From the NCBI GenBank assembly GCA_039588275.1, contig JBDHAC010000033.1, forward strand, positions 1 to 36,435: a DNA stretch of 36,435 nucleotides, in the 5' to 3' direction. Within the stretch, counting starts at the first letter, position 1, and each line of letters opens with the position of its first letter. The notes beneath the pieces are model-generated. The model did no database searches and had not been told where the DNA came from. It was given only the letters and a program-made list of their open reading frames with translations. Made by a program: the position numbers and the translations under genes. Below, one piece after another: positions 11,502 through 35,868 of the stretch. The stretch comes from Gemmatimonadota bacterium. Its GTDB lineage: Bacteria > Gemmatimonadota > Gemmatimonadetes > Palauibacterales > Palauibacteraceae.

Positions 11502-12776
11502 TCAACGGAGGCGCGGGCAGCCCGATGCGTCGAAATGTTGATCGATGCCCCGCATCACTTCGGCCGCGCTTCGATAGCTCGAAGGGATAGCCGACTCGCC
11601 TTCATCGCGAACCGCGGCGACCTTGCCCGACAGCGCGATGAAGGCATCATCCGCCGTTCGATAGGCTTCGGACATGCGATCGCAACCCACGCCATTGGTC
11701 TGATACGCCTCTGCGAGATCGTAGTACGCGTAGACCTCGGTTCGAAAAGCATCGTATTCAGACCTGAAGGTGGCCTCGCCGAAGACCTGCGGTAGTTCAT
11801 GGACGGCGAACGGTGCGGAGAACAATGTCGTGTCCGGCGCGGACGATAGCGCGGCTGGGCGTTCCCGGAGAAGGAGCCCCGCACCACCAACGATCAAGAC
11901 CGAAGCGGCCAGGGCGAGGGCCGATCGGCGACCTCGTCTCACCGAGTCCGTGGAGCGGCCGGACGGCGCCATCACCAGCGGTGTGACGAGTTGGCTCCCT
12001 GTATGCCGATTGGAAGGTGGAGGAGAAGCCGGGACGACCGGTGCCGTTGTCTCGTAGTTCGAGAATCCGACACAGGTGAAAGGAGGGCGAGCGCTCGGGT
12101 CGGTCGAGCCGTCGAGCCGCTCGAAGAAGGGCCTGTGTCTATCCGGCTGCAGCCGTTCGCCCTCGTTGCACCAGAATACGGCGCCCTTGGGTGCGGTCAG
12201 GTCGGAGACCATGAGGAGACTGAACTGCCAGGGTTCGCTGAACAGGCGCTTGTGGACCTCTATCTCCGCCTCCGTCAGCGTGCACTCTGACCCGGGGCGC
12301 GTTCGGTACCACCCGACGGGAACGCCGCCCGTCCAACACGGCTCCTCGAACAGCGAGAGCAGGGCATCCTCGAGCGCGTCGGCCGAATCGCCGTGCGCGC
12401 CCGGCTCCACGGCCGAATCGAGCCCCTTTTCGAAGGCGAGCCCGGCACCGATCGAGGCCACCACGTCGACCCACAAGCGCTGGGTGGACGGGCATTCCAA
12501 CACGTGCCCGAGCAATAAACCGGCTGTGCGTCCCTCCAGATCTCGGACCATCTCGTGTCGAAGCGTGACGAACACGCGCTGCTCTATAACGATATCGGGT
12601 TGGTGCTGGGCTCGTCCGTTGGACGCTTCATCCCCACGCGGCTTCCAGCCGATCGAGCCCTCGATGGGGAACAGCTCACGTTCGTATGGGAGGAAATAGA
12701 ATGGATTGGAGCTGTCGAAGGTTTCGCCGCCGCCACCCGGCGCTGCGCGATCGTCGGTCCCGGTCATCGTCCCCAC
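11502..12776 (-). CDS. Membrane-anchored JAB/MPN-like protein, paralog A (JAMM degenerate)
   Basis: AGLLLG...VGWYRTRP...FSEPWQ...PFFE...FSNY; single TM (ALALAASVLIVGGAGLLL); C-terminal GCDRM...SGCPR. Confidence 0.8.
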   Translation of the reverse strand: MGTMTGTDDRAAPGGGGETFDSSNPFYFLPYERELFPIEGSIGWKPRGDEASNGRAQHQPDIVIEQRVFVTLRHEMVRDLEGRTAGLLLGHVLECPSTQRLWVDVVASIGAGLAFEKGLDSAVEPGAHGDSADALEDALLSLFEEPCWTGGVPVGWYRTRPGSECTLTEAEIEVHKRLFSEPWQFSLLMVSDLTAPKGAVFWCNEGERLQPDRHRPFFERLDGSTDPSARPPFTCVGFSNYETTAPVVPASPPPSNRHTGSQLVTPLVMAPSGRSTDSVRRGRRSALALAASVLIVGGAGLLLRERPAALSSAPDTTLFSAPFAVHELPQVFGEATFRSEYDAFRTEVYAYYDLAEAYQTNGVGCDRMSEAYRTADDAFIALSGKVAAVRDEGESAIPSSYRSAAEVMRGIDQHFDASGCPRLR

Positions 12777-22550: not shown

Positions 22551-22868
22551 TCATGCCGTTTCGTCGGTGCCGGGCTCGGGGAGTGCAGCACGCTCGCGGT
22601 GGGAAAGGAGGTTCTCGACGAACTCCTGGCGCTCACCGATGAGATCGAGTTGTCTCTCGAGTGATTCGAACGCGCTCCTCAGCTCGGCGATCTCACCGCC
22701 GATCTTCGCGACCTGGCCTTTCTCGAGGCGGGCTTCGCGACGTTCCCGGACCGATTCCTCCATGAGCCCGCCCAGCCGCTTGAGAATCGGGGTCGTGATG
22801 ATGAAGCCTCCGATGATGAGGACCATGACGACGGTGAAGATCATCGCCCCGACTGTGTACGGATCCAT
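22551..22868 (-). CDS. Small membrane protein with C-terminal coiled coil
   Basis: GAGG RBS; one TM (MIFTVVMVLIIGGFII); heptads ending ERQEFVENLL. Confidence 0.75.
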   Translation of the reverse strand: MDPYTVGAMIFTVVMVLIIGGFIITTPILKRLGGLMEESVRERREARLEKGQVAKIGGEIAELRSAFESLERQLDLIGERQEFVENLLSHRERAALPEPGTDETA

Positions 22869-22996
22869 ATGCCGACCTCTACCCAAGCTCGCGTGGCTCA
22901 CCACCGGCACATTGGCGGGCAAACTTCAAGAAGCTACGGGAATCGCGGTGTGACGAACCAGAGTTGCCCGGCGAAGGCCAGGCTGGAGGAGGGGAT

Positions 22997-23030
22997 GAAG
23001 AAAGAGCCCCGGAGCCTGTCCGGGGCTCTT
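22997..23030 (-). terminator. Intrinsic terminator after the MPN paralog cluster
   Basis: Perfect 12-bp stem AAGAGCCCCGGA / TCCGGGGCTCTT with a 5-nt loop and a T-rich tail on the minus strand, about 70 nt after the stop at 23104. Confidence 0.75.
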
Positions 23031-23103
23031 CTCGCGCGGAGGCTGAAGCTCGGGAAGGGCGCGGTGACCGTCGCCAGGCCCACCCTGACCTTAACGCGGC
23101 CGA

Positions 23104-25332
23104 CTACCCACCTCGCGGCGGCGGACACTCCGACAGCTCGTAGTGAACGTCGATGACGGTTGCCTGTCGCCCCGCGCTGCGATATGCCTGAATTCCCGGT
23201 CCGGCGAACTGATCCCGTGCCGCCTCGAAGCGGCTGCCTAGTCGCCGGTAGGCATCCCTGACCGCCCGGTAGGACAGGTTCAGCGCGTTGCACCCCGCGA
23301 GCAGATCGTCGAACGCGATCCGCAGCGAGTCGTAGCGCGTCACTTCCTTGCGGAAGATCGTGAACGCGTCTTCGAAGGCCGCCACCGTGGGGTCGTCCAG
23401 CTGGAGTCCCTCGAGCCTCAGCAACACCGAGGTGTCGACAGCGGCAGCCACCGCCGGCGCTGCATCTGCTGAAGGGGACTCGGCGGCGGGAGTATTCTCT
23501 CGCTGTGAATCCGCGCTCGCGGCCGCGTCTTGCTCCGGTGTGGCGGTCGCCGGGGTCGCCTGCGGAGGAGCCTCTTCGAGCGCCGGATCGGCCGGTCCTG
23601 TCGCGCCCAAGCCCTCACGGTCGCTCTGCAGCGCCTCCTCCGTGGCCGAGGCTCCTCCGGTAAAGGAGCTGTCCCCCTCGGCCGTGATCGCGTCGGCCGT
23701 GATCGCTGCCGCGGGCATCTCTGGACCGACCCACAGGAACTCGGCCTCGGCTGTCTCGAGGGCGCCCGACCCGCGCGGGAACAGAGGCCCTTGACCGAGC
23801 GTCACGCCGGCCATCGATGCGTCGCGATCCTGGGTGGTCGGCAGCTCCCCCGTCGCGACGGGCAGCGGCGCATCTTCACGCGCGGACGCATCGCGTGCAC
23901 CACCCAGTCGCTCCAGGACGAGCCAGCCGCTACCCAGGAGGGCGACGAGGCCGGTCGCCGCCAGGGCGACTGTCCGCACCGGGATACGCGACTTGCGTCG
24001 AGATCCGCCGACCAACGTCTCGATGCTGTCGAAGGATGCCTGAGCGTCGGGCGGCTCGAGTCCGATGTACTCTGAGCTGACCGGCGGAAGCTGCACCGAA
24101 TCCGGTGGTACCCGCTGGCTTCGCACCGGCTCCGGAGTCGCGGGTACTGAACCGATCGGCTCCTTGCGGACGGACTCGGTCGAAGTCGCTCGGGATGCGG
24201 GAGCTGCAGCAGTGGGTGCGGCGTCGCGGGGCTCGGCGCTGATGGGGTCGGGGGGCGCGGTCGTCGCTTCCTCGTCCTCGAGCTCGACCGGGCTTGCGTC
24301 GGGAGTCGGTAGCTGAGCACCTAGACCGGTGGCAGCCGATGGCCCCAGCGTTCTCCCGACAGCGCTGAGCGACCGTCTGATCTGTACCTCTGACCAGCTC
24401 TCCTCGGCCTGGTCGGTCTCGTCGGTGGCGTCGGCGCTAACTGGAGCCGCCTCAGCGGTGGGTGTCGGGGCCGCGTGGACGGTCGGCCCCGGAGCCGGGT
24501 GGACGACCGGCACCGGATCTACCTCGGCGCCCGGCGCTTCACGAGGTGGAGATGACGTCCGCTCGAGCGGCTCGATGGGGGCGGGTGCTCGGTCGGCTCC
24601 GGGCTCGCTGGGGACCGGGCCGTCGGAATCAGTTTCGCGGGCTTCCTGGGTGGCTTCCGGGTCGGACGGGATAACCGAAGAAACGCCCGCCTTACCGGCC
24701 AGCGCGACCGAGAGGTCGGTTTGGTAGTTGGACCAACCGGCGAAGGTCCGCTTCCAACCTGGTGCAAACTCCGAGCTCGGATCGATCAGCTCGAAGAACG
24801 CGGCATACCCGCTCCTGCTCAACGCCCCGGTTTCGGTGCGCTGGAAGACTCCCCCGACCGGGTGTTCCGGGGTGCCCGCGAGGATCACCGCGCACTGCCA
24901 GGGCTCGCCAAAGCGAGTCTCCTGGAGTCGTGCCTCCTGCTCGGAGAGATAGACACCTGTGAGGGCATGCGTGCGGTACCAGCCGACGACCCTGTCGGCC
25001 TGCGCGGGGTCGATGACCTCCGCCAAGGCCGCCCACAGAATCTCCGCAGACGACTCCTCGGGGAGCAGTCGTCTCGCGCGAACGGCGACTTCCACGAGTA
25101 CCCACTTGCGCCCACAAGTCGGATCCTCGCGGACCCGACCGAGAAGGACACCCCCGACGGGCGCGTTTGGAGACGAAGACGCGTGCTCGCGCGCCTGCTT
25201 CAGAGCCGGTTGGCTGAACACGAGGTCCGCCCCAGCATCCGGAGCCACGCCGGTCGCCAGCTTTCGTGGCGTCCACAGGATGCTCTGGACAAAGGGCGGG
25301 GCTTCTGGCTGCCCGCTCTGACCGCCCGTCAT
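23104..25332 (-). CDS. Membrane-anchored JAB/MPN-like protein, paralog B (JAMM degenerate); alternative start 25485
   Basis: ILWTP, VGGVLLG, VGWYRTH...LSEQE, FGEPWQ, GGVFQR, FFE, WSNY; Pro/Ala/Glu linker; TM; GCNAL...SECPPP. Confidence 0.82.
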   Translation of the reverse strand: MTGGQSGQPEAPPFVQSILWTPRKLATGVAPDAGADLVFSQPALKQAREHASSSPNAPVGGVLLGRVREDPTCGRKWVLVEVAVRARRLLPEESSAEILWAALAEVIDPAQADRVVGWYRTHALTGVYLSEQEARLQETRFGEPWQCAVILAGTPEHPVGGVFQRTETGALSRSGYAAFFELIDPSSEFAPGWKRTFAGWSNYQTDLSVALAGKAGVSSVIPSDPEATQEARETDSDGPVPSEPGADRAPAPIEPLERTSSPPREAPGAEVDPVPVVHPAPGPTVHAAPTPTAEAAPVSADATDETDQAEESWSEVQIRRSLSAVGRTLGPSAATGLGAQLPTPDASPVELEDEEATTAPPDPISAEPRDAAPTAAAPASRATSTESVRKEPIGSVPATPEPVRSQRVPPDSVQLPPVSSEYIGLEPPDAQASFDSIETLVGGSRRKSRIPVRTVALAATGLVALLGSGWLVLERLGGARDASAREDAPLPVATGELPTTQDRDASMAGVTLGQGPLFPRGSGALETAEAEFLWVGPEMPAAAITADAITAEGDSSFTGGASATEEALQSDREGLGATGPADPALEEAPPQATPATATPEQDAAASADSQRENTPAAESPSADAAPAVAAAVDTSVLLRLEGLQLDDPTVAAFEDAFTIFRKEVTRYDSLRIAFDDLLAGCNALNLSYRAVRDAYRRLGSRFEAARDQFAGPGIQAYRSAGRQATVIDVHYELSECPPPRGG

Positions 25333-25532
25333 CTGTCCTTGATTCCCAGTCTTAGACACCGTGGCCTCGGCAAAAAATTCCGCTACCTCGCTACTTCGTA
25401 ACGGGGCGTACGATCCGGTCCGGCCCGTGGCAGCGCCCTGGTCGCACCGAATCGTCTTGTAGGACGCGCTTTCCTCCGATCTCATGCCTCGTCCAGGCGC
25501 GTGAAATCGCCCGTCATCCGAGGCTTGGGAGG

Positions 25533-25548
25533 TGCAAGAACGTGGCCG
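25533..25548 (-). promoter_or_regulatory. Possible sigma-54 (-24/-12) promoter
   Basis: Minus strand reads CGGCCACGTTCTTGCA, with GG-N10-GC spacing and TTGCA, in the gap upstream of paralog B. Confidence 0.35.
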
Positions 25549-25605
25549 CGTTCGGCAGCCGGAAAGGGGGGCGTTGCGGTGCTCTTGTCGGCGCTCCGAC
25601 CGGTG

Positions 25606-26910
25606 TTACGGCCGGTCGCAGCCGGAGCCTGAGAAGTGGCTGCTCACGTCGACCACCCGCAGTGCAGCCGCCTCGTATTCCGCACGTCCGTCACCCGGGG
25701 TGGCCAGGCTGAGGGCGGCGTAGGCCATGGCGGCCGCGCGGAAGTCCCGTTCGGCCCGCGACAGGCCCGAAGCGAGTGCGTCACACGAAGCCTCCGGGGG
25801 ACCCTCGAGCCTCGCGTACGCGTCCAGGGCGCTGCCAAGACTCGTCATGGCGCTGAGGAACGCGGCCTCCGGTGACGGTGGCTCGGAACGGTCCAATCCC
25901 GAGGCGTCCGCCTCGGTCGGCGCGGAGAACTCGAGCGCCGGCCCCAGACTCGGGCCAAGCCGCTCCCACCCGTACCAGCCGGCCAGGAACAGGGCGGCTG
26001 CAGCGACGACTGTGACGATGACTCCTCGCCCCCGAGATCGTCGAGAGCCCGTCGCGGGCGCATCGAGGCCGTCGTCCCCAGTCATCCAGACCAGGTCCTC
26101 CCGCGAGTCGGGCGTCTCGCCCCGCGATCGTCTGGGCCGGGTCGCCGGACCGCCCAGCCGCGGTGGAAGGACCCCCGCGCTTCCCGATCGAGCCTGACCG
26201 GACGCCAGATCCCGAAGTGAAGTGGGATCGATCAGATGAACGCGGTTGTCGGTGGTGTAGTTCTGCCAATGAATCATCGTCTGGCGGCTGCCGTCCGATC
26301 TCACCGTCCGCGGCAGCTCATAGAACGGTGCATACGCGGTGCGGGAGAACACCCCGCCTGGTCCTCGCTGGAACACCCCTCCGGCCGGATCCGAGCGCGC
26401 CACGAGGATGAGCGCGAACTGCCAGGGTTTCGAGAATTCTCGCTCGTGAAAGCGGCTTTCGGATTCCGTAAGGGTGACTCCGACGCGCGCATGACTGTGG
26501 TACCAACCGACGCGCACCAGAGTGCTGTCGTCCGCGTCGAACGCAGCCGGACCAAGCGCGGCCGTCAACGCGCGCGCATCACACGCTTCGGAGAGGGACA
26601 CGGTAGAGCGCCATACGGAATCAGCGCGCACCCACCGCCGGCCCGAGGTCGGGCAGCGGAATAGTCTGCCCACCAGGACCCCGCCGACATCCGAGTCCCC
26701 CCGCAGCACCTGTTCGAGGATCGTGGCGAGGGCAGACTGCGTGAGCACGATGTCCCACGCGGCAGCGATAGTCGTCTCCGTCACCCACAGCTTCCATGGG
26801 GTCCACAGAATGGCTTCCTCCCCGGGGTGTGGTCGCGGCCGAAGCGGTGGCACAACCGCCTCGCGTCTTTCCGCCTGCGGCTTCGAGGCCGATCGCGGCC
26901 GGTCGCTCAT
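25606..26910 (-). CDS. Membrane-anchored JAB/MPN-like protein, paralog C (HxH kept, other JAMM residues altered)
   Basis: ILWTP, DVGGVLVG, VGWYHSH...LTESE, FSKPWQ, GGVFQR, PFYE, WQNY; TM; SCDAL...SGCDRP; TGATG coupling to the upstream gene with AGGAGG RBS. Confidence 0.85.
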   Translation of the reverse strand: MSDRPRSASKPQAERREAVVPPLRPRPHPGEEAILWTPWKLWVTETTIAAAWDIVLTQSALATILEQVLRGDSDVGGVLVGRLFRCPTSGRRWVRADSVWRSTVSLSEACDARALTAALGPAAFDADDSTLVRVGWYHSHARVGVTLTESESRFHEREFSKPWQFALILVARSDPAGGVFQRGPGGVFSRTAYAPFYELPRTVRSDGSRQTMIHWQNYTTDNRVHLIDPTSLRDLASGQARSGSAGVLPPRLGGPATRPRRSRGETPDSREDLVWMTGDDGLDAPATGSRRSRGRGVIVTVVAAAALFLAGWYGWERLGPSLGPALEFSAPTEADASGLDRSEPPSPEAAFLSAMTSLGSALDAYARLEGPPEASCDALASGLSRAERDFRAAAMAYAALSLATPGDGRAEYEAAALRVVDVSSHFSGSGCDRP

Positions 26911-29174
26911 CAGGCGGACCCTCCTGCCTGGCCCTGAGTCCGTTCACACCCGGACCCCTCGAACTGGTTACGCACCTCACGCATGTCGTCGGCGAACGGC
27001 CGGAAGTCGACCGAGCCCGCCGGAGCCAGCGCCACGTGCTGGGACAGCTCACCGAACGCCGCTGACAGGACCTCGTACCCCGTCGCGAGTCCGGTACAGT
27101 CGATCCGCCCGAGCTGGAAATCCGCCTCCCGCTCTTTGTACGCGGCGAGCGCTGCGGTGAACTCTCCGGAGAGGCGGATGAACTCCGGTGCCTGCGCGGG
27201 AGGGCGGACCGTCGGCGGAGCGACGGTCGCGGGTGTCTGAAATGCAGGCTGCGGAGGCTGTTCCCGCCCGAGCAGGAACCAGGCTGACACCGCCGCGATG
27301 ACCATGGCGGCGGCGATCAGCGCCCGGTCCCGCTTGCGACGAAGCGACGGAAACCAGCCGAGACCGTCTTCGGTTGGCATGACCACCGGGATCTCGGCCA
27401 GGCGATCCTCGTCCGGATCCTCGCTGACACCCACGAACGCGGACCGCGGCTGGCGCCCGGTTGGGGGCGCTGCAGTCTTTGCCTCGGACGCTGGCATCAT
27501 CACCTGAACCGGCTCACTGGGGTCGCCTGGCGGCGGCGCATCCTCATCGCCCCCCGCGTCCGGCGTCTCGACTTCGTCTGCCGCGATCTCCGCCGATTGC
27601 TCCGCGGCTTCGGAGTCTGTCCGCTCGGTAGGCGCGAGTCCCTCGGCCAGCGTTTGCTCCACCAGACCCAGGAGCCACTCGAGCGAGCCAGCGGCCGAGT
27701 CCGCCTCCGGTGGCTCCGCGCCGAGGGCTCCGTCCCGCGTGCCGACCTCGGGCAGGATGCCGGTTCCCTCGAGCGTGGCGTCCATCTCCGCCGCCTCCGT
27801 CGGCATGAGCTCCCGATATAAGGGGAGCTCCAGAACAGATGCCTCGTTCGCCTCCGGCTCGAACGGTGCGGGCCCCCAGATGGCTTCCAGGAACTCCGCG
27901 ACCTGGCCATCGTCGGCGTCCAACGAAGGACGCACCGGCCGGCTCTCGGCGGGTGCTTCATCGGGCTCGAGGTCCAGCGCACTAACGGCTTCGTGAAACT
28001 CGCCGCTGAGATCGGCCGCTGTCGCCGCCTGCTCGTCGCCGGGCGGTTTGGCCTTCTTGGTCTTTGCCGCCGACTTGGCTTTCGAGGTGCGTTTCTTCTT
28101 CCGTGCAGGCTTGACCTTGGCGGTCGGCTTCGCCTTGGGCGCGGACTTCTTCGATGCGGGTGTGCTGCGCTTCTTCCAGCGCTTGGCCGGCGGCCCACTG
28201 CGGGGCTCCGACTTGGTCTCCGCTTCCCCGTCCGCGTCAGTCTCGGGCCGGGCCTCGTCACTCTCATCGTCCTGTACATCGGGCGTCGGGCGGGGGCGCC
28301 GGGAAGGGACAGGCCACGTCGCGGGAACGACCTCCACCCGCTCTTCGGCCCGGTAGTTGGTCCAATCCACCACCGATGGCTTCTTGCCGTCGATCAGCTT
28401 CGCGTCAAGATCGATCAGCTCGTAGAAGCCACTGATGCCCTTCCGGTACAGGCTGGCTCGCCCGGTACGCTGGATGAAGCCCCCCACCACGCCTCGCTGG
28501 CCTGGTACGATCAGGAGCGCGCAGTGCCACGCCTCTGGGAAAAACTCCTCCTGCAGTTGAAGATCCGACTGCGAGAGGTGGAGCCCGAGAACGCCATGCT
28601 GGTGATACCACCCGATGATTTGACCGCGCCTTCGTCGGGCCTCACGCGAAGCGGATGCCCACGAACGACGAAAGGAGTCCACGTCGCCGCTGTGGGGGGC
28701 GTCGTGTGTCTCCCGGCGGGCGGCATCGATGACTACGTAGGGCGCTCGCGTCCAGGGACAGTACACGACGTGACCCAGCAAGAACCCATACGGCTCGCTG
28801 TTCGCCGAACCGATGAGATGCGCCCGAACCTCTCGCAAGACCGATTGTGCGACGAACAGCTCGTGGGGCTGGGATCGGTCCCGGACATGCGCCCGCCGCC
28901 CCTTGGAAGGGACCCAAGCGATCGCCCGCGAATACGGCTTGGGTCGCTTGCGGAAAGGAAGGCTCGGCGGCCACTCGTCGGGTTGATGCCGCTCGCCGGT
29001 ATCGCCCGGGTCCGGCACCGGCAGCAACACGCCGCGCGAGCGGCGCTGCCACCAGGCGACCACTGCAGAGCCAGTCTTTTCGAAGCGCGATTCCACCAGA
29101 TAGACCTCCAGCAGACCGCCGAAGTACTTCATCAGCCGGCTGCGAAGCGCACCGATGCCCGAATATCGAGTCAT
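26910..29174 (-). CDS. Membrane-anchored JAB/MPN protein, paralog D (intact JAMM); start uncertain (29132/29174/29312)
   Basis: EPYGFLLG and IGWYHQHGVLGLHLSQSD give E...HxH-x7-S-x2-D; Lys-rich then acidic linker; TM; DCTGL...SGCER. Confidence 0.85.
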   Translation of the reverse strand: MTRYSGIGALRSRLMKYFGGLLEVYLVESRFEKTGSAVVAWWQRRSRGVLLPVPDPGDTGERHQPDEWPPSLPFRKRPKPYSRAIAWVPSKGRRAHVRDRSQPHELFVAQSVLREVRAHLIGSANSEPYGFLLGHVVYCPWTRAPYVVIDAARRETHDAPHSGDVDSFRRSWASASREARRRRGQIIGWYHQHGVLGLHLSQSDLQLQEEFFPEAWHCALLIVPGQRGVVGGFIQRTGRASLYRKGISGFYELIDLDAKLIDGKKPSVVDWTNYRAEERVEVVPATWPVPSRRPRPTPDVQDDESDEARPETDADGEAETKSEPRSGPPAKRWKKRSTPASKKSAPKAKPTAKVKPARKKKRTSKAKSAAKTKKAKPPGDEQAATAADLSGEFHEAVSALDLEPDEAPAESRPVRPSLDADDGQVAEFLEAIWGPAPFEPEANEASVLELPLYRELMPTEAAEMDATLEGTGILPEVGTRDGALGAEPPEADSAAGSLEWLLGLVEQTLAEGLAPTERTDSEAAEQSAEIAADEVETPDAGGDEDAPPPGDPSEPVQVMMPASEAKTAAPPTGRQPRSAFVGVSEDPDEDRLAEIPVVMPTEDGLGWFPSLRRKRDRALIAAAMVIAAVSAWFLLGREQPPQPAFQTPATVAPPTVRPPAQAPEFIRLSGEFTAALAAYKEREADFQLGRIDCTGLATGYEVLSAAFGELSQHVALAPAGSVDFRPFADDMREVRNQFEGSGCERTQGQAGGSA

Positions 29175-29475
29175 GCTCGGGGATCTCGAACTTTCCGAGC
29201 CCTTCAATATACCTCCGAGACGGTCGAAACGCCGCGTTGGTGGCAAGGCCTGGCCCGAATCCGGCAACTCGGCACGCACCGTGCCCCACTCGCCCCTCGC
29301 ATCGTGACTCATCGGCGGGTCGCGTCGCCTGCGTAGGGCGTCACGGCGTTTTCGTCCTATGTACGTAGTCGTGCCCGCGCGAGGCGATCTAAACGGTGGT
29401 GCGGGCAAAGTGCGGCAAGCCCTGACCTTTACCGGGCATCCGGGTCTGGGGCGGCATGCAGGAGGGAGAGATCGC

Positions 29476-31581
29476 TTGAAGGGCGATCCGAGGGACGACG
29501 GCGTCTCGCAGGCGGCAGGCCTTCTTGGCCGGGCCGTCCAACAGCACCGCATCTATCCAGCCGCCAGCCCCCTGTGCTTGGAGTCCATCAACAACTGCCT
29601 GTCGGCGTTGGAGCAACTCTCGGGCGAGGCCCTCGAGCTTCGCGTTGCGCCGCGGCAGATCTTTCATGGCGCCGATCCCCTCCCCGGGACGGCGGCGCTC
29701 AGCGAGCTGGCCGACCGGCTCTTCCGCGCCGACGTGGAGGAGTTGCGCGTCAACCGGGAGACCCCGGCCAAAGAGCTCGGGCGGTTCTGCCGTCAGCTCG
29801 CCACCTGGGACCGCCGGAACGAACGGGACGGCTCGTTCGCCGAGATCCTCGGAGAGCGGGGGGTCAACTCCATCACCGCGCGGGCGGCGGACAAGCTGGA
29901 GATCCTCGAGGTCGACGTGATCTCCAACGAGAGATTGGCCCAGTTGAGCGAGGAGCGACGGGCGCGAGCACCCGAAGACCAGCCCCGTGAGGGCGACGGA
30001 AGTCACCAGGCATGGATCCAGGTCGATACCGATTGCGATGTGGAATCCATCGATCTCGTCGATCTGGCCTTTCTCGTCGAGAACCAGGCAGACCTCGCCC
30101 AGGTGCTCTACGACATCGCGGAAGGAGGTGCTCAACGCGCATCGGGCGCCGAAGCGCTCCGCGAGAACATCGCCGAGCTCATCGAGCTGTACAGCTCGCT
30201 CAGCCCGCGTGTTGCCGAGAACCGATTTGACGACCTCGCGCGGACGCTCATGACGCTGGATCCGGAGACGCGGGAGGCCCTGACGCAGGATGTGCTCATG
30301 CCGGACCTCCTCGAGACCGGCAAGGCCGCCCGCCTGCTGCAGTTACTCCCGGACGAGGAGATGGTCGACGCCATCCGTACGCTGGGGGAGCTCGAGGTCG
30401 GGGCGCCGGGCCTGGTGAAGCTCGCGTTCGATCGGCTCGCGCTCCCGGACGAGCGGCGCGTGGCCCTCGCGAGAACGGTCGACGAATCGCTCCACCCGGG
30501 TCCCGAGGAGGGAGAGTCCGACTCGACCCACGTAAGACTCTCGGCGGATGGATCAGAGAGTCAAGATCTTCAGGAGTACACCGCTCACGAGCTTTCCGTG
30601 GACGAAGAGACGGCTGCGGAGCTGGACCGCATCAAGACCGCGGTCGAGGCGGTCCAGCCGGCCGAGGGGGGGTCAGAGTGGCTGCGCGGCTGCGCCAATC
30701 TCGTTCGTCACGTTCGTAACCCCGACCATGTCGAGGAGATGCTCGAGCTTGCCGCGGAGGCACTGGTCTCGCTGATTCGCTCGGATGCCGGGAAGGCCGC
30801 GGGGGCTGTCGACGACCTCTGTTCCGCGGCCGATGCCGTGCGCGACCACAGGCCGGAGGTCGCCGAGGCCGTGGATGGGCTCATGCTGTCCATCTGCTCT
30901 CCGTCTTTCCTGCGGGCCCAAGCGCAGGACTGGCTCGGCCAGGAAGACCCGGATTCTGCCGGGCGGGCCCTTCTGCTGGCCCTGGGGACCGCTTCGATAG
31001 AAGCCTTCGTGCGCTTCCTCGATGAAGAGCCGTCGCGGGCCGTACGGCGACGAGTGATGGACTTCATGTGCGAGAACGGACGCGCGCTCGCCGCCGTGTC
31101 GATCCCTTATCTGAGCGACGAGCGCTGGACCGTGGTGCGCAACATGGTCCGGATCATCGGGTTCGCCGGCCCCGGACATGAGGCACAGCTGGCTCCCCTC
31201 GTCGGGCACCCGGAAGACCGCGTTGCCAGGGAGGCGCTTCTCGCACTGGCACGTATAGGGTCACCGGAAGCCGCCAAGCTGGTGGTCGGAAGGCTCGAGG
31301 AAGAGAACCCATCCCGACGAGCGATGGCGGAGGAGTCGATCCGCACCTTCCCGGTGGAGGAAGGTCGCCGCCAGGCGCGCCGACTGCTCGCGGACCAGAG
31401 ACTCCTGCGTCGCTCCCCCGAGCTTGCCCGTAGCCTCGTCGAGCGATTCGTCGCGACCGATCGAACGGGCTGGGAGGATGTTCTCTCTCCGATCCTGTCG
31501 CTGCGCTTCCGGTTCTGGAATCGCAGGCAGATGGCGCTGGGCCGGGCCGCAGCGGCGGCGCTCAAGGGGAGTCGACGGTGA
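29476..31581 (+). CDS. HEAT-repeat domain protein
   Basis: TTG start after GGAGGGAGAG; C-terminal HEAT repeats (DERWTVVRNMVRIIG, HPEDRVAREALLALARIG); GTGA overlap with the next gene. Confidence 0.85.
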   Translation: MKGDPRDDGVSQAAGLLGRAVQQHRIYPAASPLCLESINNCLSALEQLSGEALELRVAPRQIFHGADPLPGTAALSELADRLFRADVEELRVNRETPAKELGRFCRQLATWDRRNERDGSFAEILGERGVNSITARAADKLEILEVDVISNERLAQLSEERRARAPEDQPREGDGSHQAWIQVDTDCDVESIDLVDLAFLVENQADLAQVLYDIAEGGAQRASGAEALRENIAELIELYSSLSPRVAENRFDDLARTLMTLDPETREALTQDVLMPDLLETGKAARLLQLLPDEEMVDAIRTLGELEVGAPGLVKLAFDRLALPDERRVALARTVDESLHPGPEEGESDSTHVRLSADGSESQDLQEYTAHELSVDEETAAELDRIKTAVEAVQPAEGGSEWLRGCANLVRHVRNPDHVEEMLELAAEALVSLIRSDAGKAAGAVDDLCSAADAVRDHRPEVAEAVDGLMLSICSPSFLRAQAQDWLGQEDPDSAGRALLLALGTASIEAFVRFLDEEPSRAVRRRVMDFMCENGRALAAVSIPYLSDERWTVVRNMVRIIGFAGPGHEAQLAPLVGHPEDRVAREALLALARIGSPEAAKLVVGRLEEENPSRRAMAEESIRTFPVEEGRRQARRLLADQRLLRRSPELARSLVERFVATDRTGWEDVLSPILSLRFRFWNRRQMALGRAAAAALKGSRR

Positions 31582-32981
31582 GTGGGCTGGCCCGAGACTC
31601 GAGAACGTTGACGCCGCTCGTCATCCTGCGGGCGTTGAGCGGTCTTCGCAGGAGTCTCGCGCTCTACCCCTCCGGCCACACGGTGATCGAACAGGCGATC
31701 GATGAGTTGGAGCGCGTGCTCGAGCAGGTCTTCGTGGAGCACGACAGGGTCCGCATCGAGCTCGTCGACAAGACCGCGCACCTCGAGGGATACCCGTTCC
31801 GGGTCGAGAGCCACTCGAACGCCGATGCCCTGGAAGAGTTACAGCGACTCGAGATCGAGTGTCTGCAGATCGAGCGTGGCGTGGAAAGGGACGAGCTCGC
31901 GGAGATGGCGGGCCTCCTCCATAGATTGGGGGATCGTGTCCCAGAGGATTCGATGCGCGGCCTCCTGCTCGCCGAGGGGGTGAAACGGGTGACCATGACT
32001 CGACTCGTCCCGGTCGAGACCCGTTTCCAGTCGTTCGAGTGGCCCAGTGAGCCCGAGAGTATCCTGGAGCCGGGGTATGCCAGAGCGCTCGATGACGCGC
32101 ACGACTCCATCGGTGCGATCTTCGAGGGTGGGACGCCGGACGCACAGTCGCTGCACCAGCTGCTGGCGTGGATTAGCGAACAGGTCGCAGACAGCACCTC
32201 CGCCCTGAGCCAGATCCTCTCCGTGAAGAGATACGAGAACCACACCTACTGCCACTCGGTGAACGTGGCGACGCTCGCGATGCTCCTCGGTCGCCGGATC
32301 GGACTCGAGGAAGCCGAGCTGATGTCGCTCTCGGAGGCGGCTCTCCTCCACGACGTAGGTAAGCGCCAGATTCCCTCGGACATCCTCACGAAACCGGGCC
32401 CGCTCAACCGGCGTGAGTGGCGCATCGTGCAACGTCACCCCGTCATAGGCGCGAGCATCCTCACGCGCGCGAGCGGTTTCGAGCCCCTCACGCCGACGGT
32501 AGCCCTCGAGCACCATCGAGAGTACGGAGGTGGCGGGTACCCGGATCTGGAGGAACAGAGACCGCATCTGTTGAGCCAGATCGTCGCGGTCGTGGATACG
32601 TACGAGGCACTCACCGGAGCCCGGCCCTACCGCGAGCCGTTGGTTCCGGAGGAAGCATGTCTCATCCTCGCCCGGATGGCCGGGGAGAAGCTGAATCCGG
32701 CATTGGTGAAGGCGTTCGTGAGCCTGGTCACGTTCTTCCCGCTCGGCTCGGTGGTGCGAACCTCTCTCGGGGAGATCGGGGTGGTGATCGACACGTCGGA
32801 AGACGACCCGCTCCACCCCGTGATTCGATTGGGTGGTGGCGGTCTGGACTCGCCGGGGACGAGGATCGATACCGCCGACCGGGATGCCGGGGGAGAGTAC
32901 GTGCGACACATCGTCGAGACGCTGCCCCGGTCCGTCGCCGATCCGGATCCGGAACCGGAGCCCCTCGCCGCCTCCGCCTGA
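31578..32981 (+). CDS. HD-GYP domain protein (cyclic dinucleotide phosphodiesterase family)
   Basis: TYCHSVNV, LLHDVGK, HP..G, EHHREYGGGGYP, VDTYEALT..RPYR. Confidence 0.92.
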   Translation: MSGLARDSRTLTPLVILRALSGLRRSLALYPSGHTVIEQAIDELERVLEQVFVEHDRVRIELVDKTAHLEGYPFRVESHSNADALEELQRLEIECLQIERGVERDELAEMAGLLHRLGDRVPEDSMRGLLLAEGVKRVTMTRLVPVETRFQSFEWPSEPESILEPGYARALDDAHDSIGAIFEGGTPDAQSLHQLLAWISEQVADSTSALSQILSVKRYENHTYCHSVNVATLAMLLGRRIGLEEAELMSLSEAALLHDVGKRQIPSDILTKPGPLNRREWRIVQRHPVIGASILTRASGFEPLTPTVALEHHREYGGGGYPDLEEQRPHLLSQIVAVVDTYEALTGARPYREPLVPEEACLILARMAGEKLNPALVKAFVSLVTFFPLGSVVRTSLGEIGVVIDTSEDDPLHPVIRLGGGGLDSPGTRIDTADRDAGGEYVRHIVETLPRSVADPDPEPEPLAASA

Positions 32982-34359: not shown

Positions 34360-34619
34360 CCATCGCCGCCTCGCCAGGGTCTCGCCGACGCCGAGATCTA
34401 GGGATTCCTCTCTGACATCTAGACGACGCGGACGGGTTGCTACTCGGAGATTCTCACCTTCCGCGACAGTGTTGTGGCCGAACGTGGAGACGTCCTAGAT
34501 TTGCGTCAGCCACGCACCCAGAATTGCCGCTAGGGGCAGGACCAGGATTGACTCACGGCCTCCGGGGACGGTGTTGCTGGAGCTCCACCGACTCCAATCG
34601 CTCGCGGGGAGGCCCTCAA

Positions 34620-35222
34620 GTGGAAGAGTTCAAGGAATCGCGCCTTGCCTCCGGAGCCGGGGAGCTGTGGGATCTCGCTACGCGCGCTGAGTTCCTCGAC
34701 GCGGTCGGCGATGGATCCCTGCCCGAGGAGGCGTTCAATCGCTGGCTCGTGCAGGATTACCTGTTCGTGCGTGGCTTCACCCGCTTCGCCTCCCTGACGA
34801 TCGCCAAGACGCCGCGGCCGGGTCAGAGCGTCCTGATTGGGGGCCTGGCGGCTCTCGACGAGGAGCTCAACTGGTTCGAGGCGCACGCCCGGGCCAGGTC
34901 TCTGGATCTCTCCTCCGCCCTTCATCCCGTCTGCCGGCGCTACGCGGACTTCCTTCTCAGCTCCGCCTACTCGGAGCCGTTTCAGGTGCTCCTGGCCATC
35001 TTCTACGGCGTCGAAGTGGCCTACACCGTCGCATGGGGCAGGCTCGAGCCTCAGGGACCCTACGAGGAGTTCATCGACCGATGGACGCACGAGGACTTCG
35101 TCGCGTACGTTCGCGCCCTCCTCGCGCTCGTGGACGAGCATCCCCACCCCCGGCAGCAGGCGATGTTCAACGAGGTGATGCGTCATGAACGAGGTTTCTG
35201 GCGCATGACCTGGGAAGGCTGA
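34620..35222 (+). CDS. TenA family protein, Glu-type (lacks catalytic Cys)
   Basis: GGAGG RBS before GTG; FNRWLVQDYLF, DEELNWF, YGVEVAY, FIDRW and ERGFW motifs. Confidence 0.87.
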   Translation: MEEFKESRLASGAGELWDLATRAEFLDAVGDGSLPEEAFNRWLVQDYLFVRGFTRFASLTIAKTPRPGQSVLIGGLAALDEELNWFEAHARARSLDLSSALHPVCRRYADFLLSSAYSEPFQVLLAIFYGVEVAYTVAWGRLEPQGPYEEFIDRWTHEDFVAYVRALLALVDEHPHPRQQAMFNEVMRHERGFWRMTWEG

Positions 35223-35229
35223 GCCCCAC

Positions 35230-35868
35230 ATGCCTGCCCAGCCGCTCCACGCCACCCTCTGGAACCAGAATCGAGCCCTGGCCGAGGCGTGTCTGGCCCA
35301 TCCGTTCGTCCGCGGGCTGGGAGAGGGCGATTTGGATCCCGAACTGTTCAAGCGTTATGTGGCCCAAGACGTGTTCTTCCTGCGGGCGTTCTTCAGCGCC
35401 TACGCCCTGGCAGCCGTCCGGGCGATGGCGGGACGTGGGGTGGTAGAGCGACTTCACCGGCTCATGGGGGGCGTCCTTGATGAGCTGGGTCTGCACGAGG
35501 GTTACGCCGAGAGTCTGGCAATCCGTCTGGAAGACATCCGACCCCACCCGGCCACCCGCGCTTACACTGATTTCTTGCTGCGGACCGCGTGGACCGCCGA
35601 TGTAGGCGAGATCATGGCGGCGATGACGCCGTGCATGCGGCTCTACGCCTGGTTGGGTCAGCGGTTGGCAGTGAGTGACCTGTCTCGGAATCCATATCGA
35701 GAGTGGATCGAGACCTACTCGACCGACGAGTTCGAGGCGCTGGCGGTCGAGCTCGAGCGGCTGCTGGACTCGTTCGCCGACGACACCGCCGAAGTCGCCG
35801 CCGCCTACGGCTACGCCATGCGCTGTGAGCTCGACTTCTTCTCTGCCTCTCTTGCCGAGGCTCCATGA
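35230..35868 (+). CDS. tenA: TenA family protein, Cys-type (thiaminase II / aminopyrimidine aminohydrolase)
   Basis: HPFV, YVAQDVFFL, YTDFL, MTPCMRLY, NPYREWIETY and ELDFF motifs. Confidence 0.9.
   Translation: MPAQPLHATLWNQNRALAEACLAHPFVRGLGEGDLDPELFKRYVAQDVFFLRAFFSAYALAAVRAMAGRGVVERLHRLMGGVLDELGLHEGYAESLAIRLEDIRPHPATRAYTDFLLRTAWTADVGEIMAAMTPCMRLYAWLGQRLAVSDLSRNPYREWIETYSTDEFEALAVELERLLDSFADDTAEVAAAYGYAMRCELDFFSASLAEAP

Follow-up and report, generated by a model that had tools for sequence, protein, structure and literature searches.

What does a membrane-anchored JAB/MPN protein do when no ubiquitin-like genes lie beside it? This question is raised by a stretch of DNA of 36,435 nucleotides (hereafter the window) from a bacterium of the phylum Gemmatimonadota (GenBank assembly GCA_039588275.1, contig JBDHAC010000033.1). 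Three genes on its minus strand, termed here D (26910–29096, ~728 amino acids), C (25606–26910, 434 amino acids) and B (23104–25332, ~742 amino acids), follow one another with D at the head. An initial annotation had placed three co-oriented reading frames here, which is correct, and had proposed that they form a transmembrane isopeptidase system. A fourth paralogue, gene A (11502–12776, minus strand, 424 amino acids), had not been flagged. The reading that we favour, and to which we give slightly better than an even chance, is that D, C and B are largely non-catalytic adaptors spanning the envelope, exapted from a membrane deubiquitinase that belonged to a bacterial ubiquitin operon. It draws directly on the MPN fold, the states of the catalytic motif, the transmembrane (TM) helix, the placement beside a sister clade, the repeated loss of the catalytic Glu and of the whole MPN domain, and the coupling of many members to an exported partner. 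If it is true, a bacterial deubiquitinase has left its ubiquitin operon and been reused across the phylum as an envelope adaptor, a history in which catalysis disappeared on many occasions and the entire domain on several.

Fold and catalytic state of the MPN domains

In Pfam searches the window proteins score under the JAB cut-offs, including that of PF14464 (E 0.002–0.02). A profile of five paralogues finds Rpn11 in the PDB at E 6e-8, and a profile of 133 rows finds archaeal Rpn11 at E 2e-11. The AlphaFold2 (AF2) model of the D domain, with a predicted local distance difference test (pLDDT) score of 91, retrieves archaeal Rpn11 in Foldseek (E 1e-7), and its comparison with yeast Rpn11 by VIA gives Z 13.1 and a root-mean-square deviation of 3.9 over 151 aligned residues. 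The N-terminal MPN fold proposed at the outset is borne out by these searches. Membership of D, C and B in the MPN/JAB superfamily is confirmed by sequence profile and modelled fold, and the seven motifs quoted for the three proteins are all found in each of them.

The five positions of the JAMM motif differ among the paralogues. The complete motif (E-H-H-S-D) is present only in D (MPN domain 28326–28955, as all features of these genes on the minus strand), with the Glu codon at 28794–28796 and the segment H-x-H-x7-S-x2-D at 28563–28604. The domain of C (26230–26841) is without the catalytic Glu and reads D-H-H-T-E. The domains of B (24700–25311; P-R-H-S-E) and A (12033–12686; R-R-R-T-E, both zinc His replaced by Arg) are of the MPN- type, in which the catalytic residues are lost. 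The same pattern extends through the family. A representative search gave 227 clusters at E ≤1e-30 and 753 at E ≤1e-10, of which the best 150 were listed; among the matches listed, the full motif survives in 20 of 155 family-type domains, the Glu in 39 and the H-H-D set in 92, three near-duplicates being counted in and seven tandem-JAB proteins set aside. The presence of Glu switches 18 times on a FastTree phylogeny, which suggests that the dead bacterial MPN copies arose independently, many times. The family was found in 22 of 41 related genomes (metagenome-assembled, 81–96% complete; the own genome is 86% complete), three further weak matches being another JAB. An intact copy is present in 8 of these 22 and in none of the other 14. 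Within the cluster the full motif is confined to D. The proposal of an isopeptidase system is thus only partly supported, and we read the family as a variant of the JAB/MPN kind rather than as such a system.

The degenerate domains remain, as judged by substitution ratios, under purifying selection (dN/dS 0.15–0.20): the values are 0.15 for B, 0.16–0.18 for C and 0.19–0.20 for A, and 0.09 for D. The family also has invariant MPN-domain residues outside the metal site. The D clade (support 0.91) is uniformly intact, all five catalytic residues being kept at 39–63% identity. An intact D-type gene heads a tandem of degenerate paralogues in seven genomes (the own genome, G001, G002, G004, G015 and those of loci L045 and L046), and in the G002 cluster the B gene is split between frames. 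Within the window, the stop of D and the start of C overlap in TGATG (26908–26912), which is preceded by AGGAGG; D and C are read as translationally coupled through this overlap, as the initial annotation had stated.

The best matches in sequence and fold are the enzymes of the Rpn11 type (PF01398), namely Rpn11/PSMD14, CSN5, BRCC36 and Caldiarchaeum Rpn11 (E 2e-11 to 6e-8, Z 13.1), and the Glu and every zinc ligand coincide in their alignment with D. Unlike the window proteins, they are soluble subunits of the proteasome, signalosome or BRCA1-A complexes and act on ubiquitin or NEDD8. The fold with its catalytic residues lost is also that of Rpn8, CSN6, Abraxas/KIAA0157, eIF3f, Npl4 and the Prp8 MPN domain (Z 8.6–12.3), but these pseudo-enzymes are eukaryotic and soluble. 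Eukaryotic MPN- subunits serve as scaffolds beside a catalytically intact (MPN+) partner. The joint encoding of active and inactive paralogues in seven genomes is as in heterodimers of the Rpn11/Rpn8 type, and the two kinds of MPN domain may pair in a similar manner. Should the adaptor reading hold, the family would offer a small natural model for the origin of MPN- pseudo-enzymes next to an MPN+ partner, for which the known examples are otherwise eukaryotic complexes. Mec, BilC and CBASS Cap3 (PF14464) share the fold (Z 11.6 for the BilC complex 8tyy, Z 10.6 for Cap3 9ild), but they are small, soluble and next to their own ubiquitin-like protein (Ubl) or E1 gene, and the window proteins fall below the PF14464 cut-off. 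Nor do the window genes resemble a sulfur-carrier JAB of the Mec type, which is small and soluble, over the Pfam cut-off and located beside CysO/MoeZ.

The own genome carries a copy consisting of the MPN domain only (L001:916–1740), which is of the A type, MPN-, and ends before the TM helix. The same truncation occurs in G001 (L068), and the gene is full length in G002 (L067); a soluble dead MPN domain of the A type may thus be kept. Members of 1,400–1,600 amino acids with a degenerate MPN domain and very long linkers are found in G013, G014, G023 and G012 (L030–L033).

Topology, domain loss and the exported partner

The single TM helix claimed for each protein is matched by one hydrophobic 19-residue segment in D, C and B, with Kyte–Doolittle (KD) values of 2.32, 1.93 and 2.05, respectively (next best ≤1.44). 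The helices lie at 27267–27323 in D, just behind a basic cluster, at 25969–26025 in C, at 23914–23970 in B and at 11868–11924 in A. The long linker ascribed to all three proteins is present in D (329 amino acids) and B (237), and C has one of only 63. Beyond the helix lies a three-helix bundle (3HB), located at 26937–27185 in D, where it holds two invariant Cys, at 25609–25869 in C, at 23113–23382 in B, where an outside spacer of 171 amino acids precedes it, and at 11505–11774 in A. The full-length model of C comprises the MPN domain, a disordered linker, a helix at residues 295–318 and the bundle at 347–429. A fold search with this model finds that the bundle resembles spectrin repeats only generically (Z 10.5, a value generic for helical bundles).

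Of 161 proteins in the family or close to it, 137 reach a KD threshold of 1.6 and 147 have the bundle. Lys and Arg number 3.9 before and 1.3 after the TM helix, the count before it being higher in 120 of 137 proteins and lower in 3. From hydropathy and this charge bias we infer an N-in orientation. The proteins are therefore predicted to be bitopic inner-membrane proteins with one TM helix and no signal peptide, the MPN domain being cytoplasmic and the two-Cys domain extracytoplasmic, in agreement with the topology first proposed. D, C and B each have two C-terminal Cys; neither position varies in any of 30 aligned rows, and the two Cys probably form a disulfide. The proposal that the outside domain controls the MPN domain finds no support: 63–329 disordered residues lie between the two, and linkers of this kind make conformational coupling unlikely, and several losses of the MPN domain left the outside part in place.

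This loss can be followed on a 62-row tree of the 3HB, from which split and partial genes were excluded. Eight MPN-less TM-3HB genes are scattered over it, requiring 6 changes, of which at least 3 are forced, and in 0 of 200 bootstrap trees were the MPN-less forms joined. On this tree the whole MPN domain was lost repeatedly and the TM-3HB part retained. One such gene belongs to the own genome (L002:6483–7109), where it lies at a MoeA-DacB-barrel-SH3 locus; G016 and G020 carry an MPN-bearing gene there.

Another retained element is a juxtamembrane motif of three hydrophobic residues followed by Pro, situated in D at 27375–27392, ~20 residues before the TM helix, and present in A as a near variant. 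Of the 143 full-length members, 61 carry it, where shuffled sequences would give 9.6, and in an upstream control it appeared in 2 of 75 windows. All eight MPN-less forms have it. A role as ligand of the family's own MPN groove is weakened by its persistence in four genomes in which the search detected no MPN domain of the family (G070, G010, G011, G021). The clade of B has a juxtamembrane motif of its own (23995–24015 in B), with Gly-Gly in 7 of 14 members and Gly-Arg in the other 7, which weakens its interpretation as a Ubl-like cleavage site.

The partner is an exported protein, its signal peptide judged by eye, with a two-Cys N-terminal domain, immunoglobulin (Ig)-like domains and sometimes tetratricopeptide repeats (TPRs). 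In the loci fetched, all 25 partner domains stand directly behind a 3HB gene. Among 151 genomes of the phylum, strong partner matches occur in 19, all of them among the 23 with the 3HB; the MPN domain has strong matches in 23 genomes, 22 of which also have the 3HB. Three relatives have the partner without a family MPN domain, and in each the gene immediately before that of the partner encodes an MPN-less TM-3HB protein. Neither the 3HB nor the N-terminal domain of the partner gave a match in Pfam, NCBIfam, PDB sequences or the ESM Atlas. Under the adaptor reading, these two uncurated domains would define a testable pair in the little-studied envelope of Gemmatimonadota.

Sister proteins in ubiquitin-like operons

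Close relatives of the window proteins are titled Gemmatimonadota, as are the nearest ESM Atlas clusters. Seven top matches are tandem JAB-JAB-TM proteins with 13 of 14 domains intact, one of them named Acidobacteria (P0049). A metagenome scan with tandem-JAB proteins led to 69 loci with the gene order ThiF, YukD-like Ubl, UQ_con E2, JAB, vWA/RING, TM-FHA. A Ubl or E2 gene was recognised by motif in 53 of the 69, the remainder being mostly short contigs. On the tree, the window family forms a clade (support 0.81) that is sister to the membrane-anchored JAB-TM and JAB-JAB-TM proteins of these operons (loci L096–L122; support 0.989). The two groups share an N-terminal W-x-P extension, a Cys-Pro hairpin, the FYE and WxN motifs and the layout of MPN domain, linker and TM helix. 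Unlike the window family, which lies outside the operon and has mostly lost catalysis, the sister proteins keep the JAMM motif and stand beside E1, Ubl, E2 and RING genes, without the 3HB and the exported partner. The general statement that bacterial JABs are soluble, from which the initial annotation had started, does not extend to this clade, whose members are JAB-TM or JAB-JAB-TM proteins within complete ubiquitin-like operons.

Bacterial JAB/E1/E2 operons have been described, no membrane JAB being mentioned in the passages concerned (PMC1779556). Prokaryotic JABs are treated as intracellular, and toxin JAB clades are distinguished, in PMC3482391, and BilC is presented with other uncharacterised Ubl operons in bioRxiv 10.1101/2023.09.26.559546. 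The architecture of the window proteins had not been recognised as characterised; it corresponds to no curated family, and no description of the family was found in the literature searched. The family is real and uncharacterised. Burroughs, Iyer and Aravind reportedly gave a computational description of E1-Ubl-E2-JAB-vWA/RING-TM/FHA operons in 2011; the 2011 work on prokaryotic RING-finger ubiquitin systems may mention related architectures.

An operon of this kind is beside no gene of the window family. The neighbours of D, C and B in the window include no Ubl, E1 or E2 genes, as first noted, and only G009 has a ThiF-like gene near a family member, on the opposite strand. Profiles of the sister-clade Ubl, E2 and TM-FHA proteins found none in the own genome, and the Ubl of this type was found in 0 of 24 genomes of the same family. 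The E2 was found in 2 of 151 phylum genomes, one of them family-bearing with its own separate operon, a search that did detect genomes with an operon of their own as positive control. Pfam searches of the own genome for ubiquitin, UQ_con and Prok-E2_B carry no weight, since no control was detected either. No match to a 20S proteasome or to ubiquitin was found in the own genome (the ubiquitin Pfam search again detecting no control), where one match fits HslV; no plasmid match was obtained. The own genome does encode three ThiS/MoaD-like proteins ending in Gly-Gly, in thiamine, molybdopterin or MoeZ contexts, and one MoeZ-type E1. D is its sole Prok-JAB match. The two same-genus genomes each carry a soluble Mec-like JAB besides D, which rules out D as the replacement of a missing Mec.

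Several loci encountered in these searches are of separate interest. A CysO-like sulfur carrier and a MoeZ-type E1 lie together in the own genome without an adjacent soluble JAB (L051:1435–2887). In five sister loci (L099, L103, L105, L108, L119) the E1-Ubl-E2-JAB(TM)-vWA/RING-FHA operon is beside Tad/Flp pilus genes (CpaB, secretion ATPase, T2SSF), and the Ubls of these operons end in Ala-Gly, not Gly-Gly. The weak JAB matches in G032, G035, G038 and G039 belong to another JAB, which is soluble, and were excluded from the family counts. In these four genomes (L061–L064) a ThiF-like E1, the soluble JAB, a proteasome-type AAA ATPase and two Dop/PafA-like genes form one operon, which also holds a small open reading frame ending in Gly-Gly-Gln; the JAB has a Cys-x-x-Cys insert after the zinc His. 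From its gene content, the operon appears to be a hybrid of ubiquitin-like and pupylation-like systems. In eight loci from one Gemmatimonadota family (L078, L081–L083, L085, L086, L088, L091) the gene of the window family lies just upstream of dnaX and of a row of genes closed by mglB and a small GTPase gene, a neighbourhood that may be inherited synteny only.

Function and surroundings of the cluster

In the adaptor reading, every binding step of which is inferred, the disulfide-closed 3HB would face the periplasm and bind the two-Cys N-terminal domain of the partner. The hydrophobic-Pro juxtamembrane motif would likely dock a cytoplasmic protein, and the MPN domain, set apart from the membrane by a flexible tether of 60–330 residues, would likely be an optional peptide- or protein-binding module. 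In this lineage the intact D would be expressed together with the degenerate C and B, its likely MPN- partners in pairing; D may keep some protease activity, catalysis being optional. Bitopic envelope adaptors are exemplified by GltJ/GltG of Myxococcus, TonB/TolA and the pseudokinase EssB/YukC. The window proteins are like them in having a cytoplasmic binding module, a flexible linker, one TM helix and a small outside domain thought to touch an exported protein. They are unlike them in sequence and fold, where no relationship was found, the outside domain of the window family being a spectrin-repeat-like bundle.

Several observations weigh against this reading. The partner is adjacent for only 25 of the 67 3HB matches in the fetched loci; no window gene (D, C, B or A) adjoins it, and the two partner copies of the own genome are unlinked. 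In 4 of the 22 relatives that carry the family the searches did not detect it, among them G004 (87% complete) and G015 (91% complete), both with a similar triplet; nor was it detected in 4 of the 23 genomes of the phylum sample that have the 3HB. The co-occurrence profiles were built from loci picked for carrying the family, related genomes are not independent, and the phylum searches scored only part of the first-look candidates. The juxtamembrane motif is absent from B and C. The comparison domains, of which 71 of 75 are intact (70 of the 75 being from the operon loci, 5 from other JAB types), speak for the reading, but the fraction is inflated for the sister clade, since the scan pattern held the first His. 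Finally, the intactness of the D clade together with its lowest dN/dS argues for real catalysis in D.

This last point leads to an alternative that we hold to be unlikely, although it overlaps the adaptor reading: D, as an active JAMM protease, would join C and B in an obligate MPN+/MPN- complex at the membrane, and catalysis would be the point of the cluster. The substrate would be other than ubiquitin, possibly a juxtamembrane segment such as the Gly-Gly-containing motif of B itself. The position of an intact D-type gene before degenerate paralogues in seven genomes, the uniformly intact D clade, the D–C coupling and the tandem MPN-MPN fusions of the sister clade and of P0015 all speak for it. 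The even division of the B-clade motif between Gly-Gly and Gly-Arg is unlike a cleavage site, copies are dispersed without an intact partner in most genomes, and according to PMC3239186 JABs act as peptidases only on Ubl tails. Slightly more doubtful is a fuller version, in which D-C-B is a membrane-tethered MPN+/MPN- complex, an independently evolved counterpart of Rpn11/Rpn8 or BRCC36/Abraxas derived from an orphaned ubiquitin-operon deubiquitinase, which is coupled across the inner membrane, via the disulfide 3HBs, to the exported Ig-like/TPR protein and in which D cuts a substrate that is not a Ubl.

A decidedly improbable third possibility takes the MPN domain to be a cytoplasmic sensor of zinc or a small ligand, or a slowly decaying passenger on a TM-3HB protein that acts solely outside the cytoplasm. 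Retention of H-H-D more often than Glu among the matches listed and the repeated loss of the whole domain are as expected from it, but A and B lack zinc ligands and are nevertheless under purifying selection, and the residues that never vary are not those of the metal site. The model of the initial annotation, in which a ligand of the two-Cys domain switches on the MPN domain of receptor-like isopeptidases to strip a ThiS/MoaD-like protein from its targets, is in our estimation about equally improbable. The topology fits it, as do the three Gly-Gly-ending proteins, the MoeZ-type E1 and the position of D as the only Prok-JAB match. However, C and B are without catalytic residues, the family can dispense with the MPN domain, long disordered linkers make conformational coupling unlikely, and the Ubl-like genes in question belong to thiamine, molybdopterin or MoeZ contexts and encode a terminal Gly-Gly as they stand; the soluble Mec-like JAB found with D in both same-genus genomes also counts against D as a stand-in. 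The function of the family is, on the strength of sequence and models, put forward as a set of proposals, of which the adaptor reading is the one we prefer.

The start of D is probably the GTG at 29096, which has a GGAGG ribosome-binding site; an alternative in-frame ATG lies at 29174, and the frame is open to 29552. The start of B is probably the ATG at 25332, whose Met is kept in two same-genus orthologues, and its frame is open to 25485. The terminator proposed after B was partly substantiated: a terminator-like hairpin with a 13-bp stem and a weak U tail is present (23000–23031, minus strand), but it was not called by a terminator scan and its folding z-score is only -1.17. After B, a small gene for a TM and coiled-coil protein (22551–22922) has homologues near family genes in 6 genomes, and its product gives no Pfam family above cut-off. 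Divergent from D are genes for HEAT-repeat and HD-domain proteins (29359–32981), which have remained neighbours of the cluster in G001, G002 and G004. Further along the window, two genes of the TenA/PqqC family stand side by side (34437–35868).

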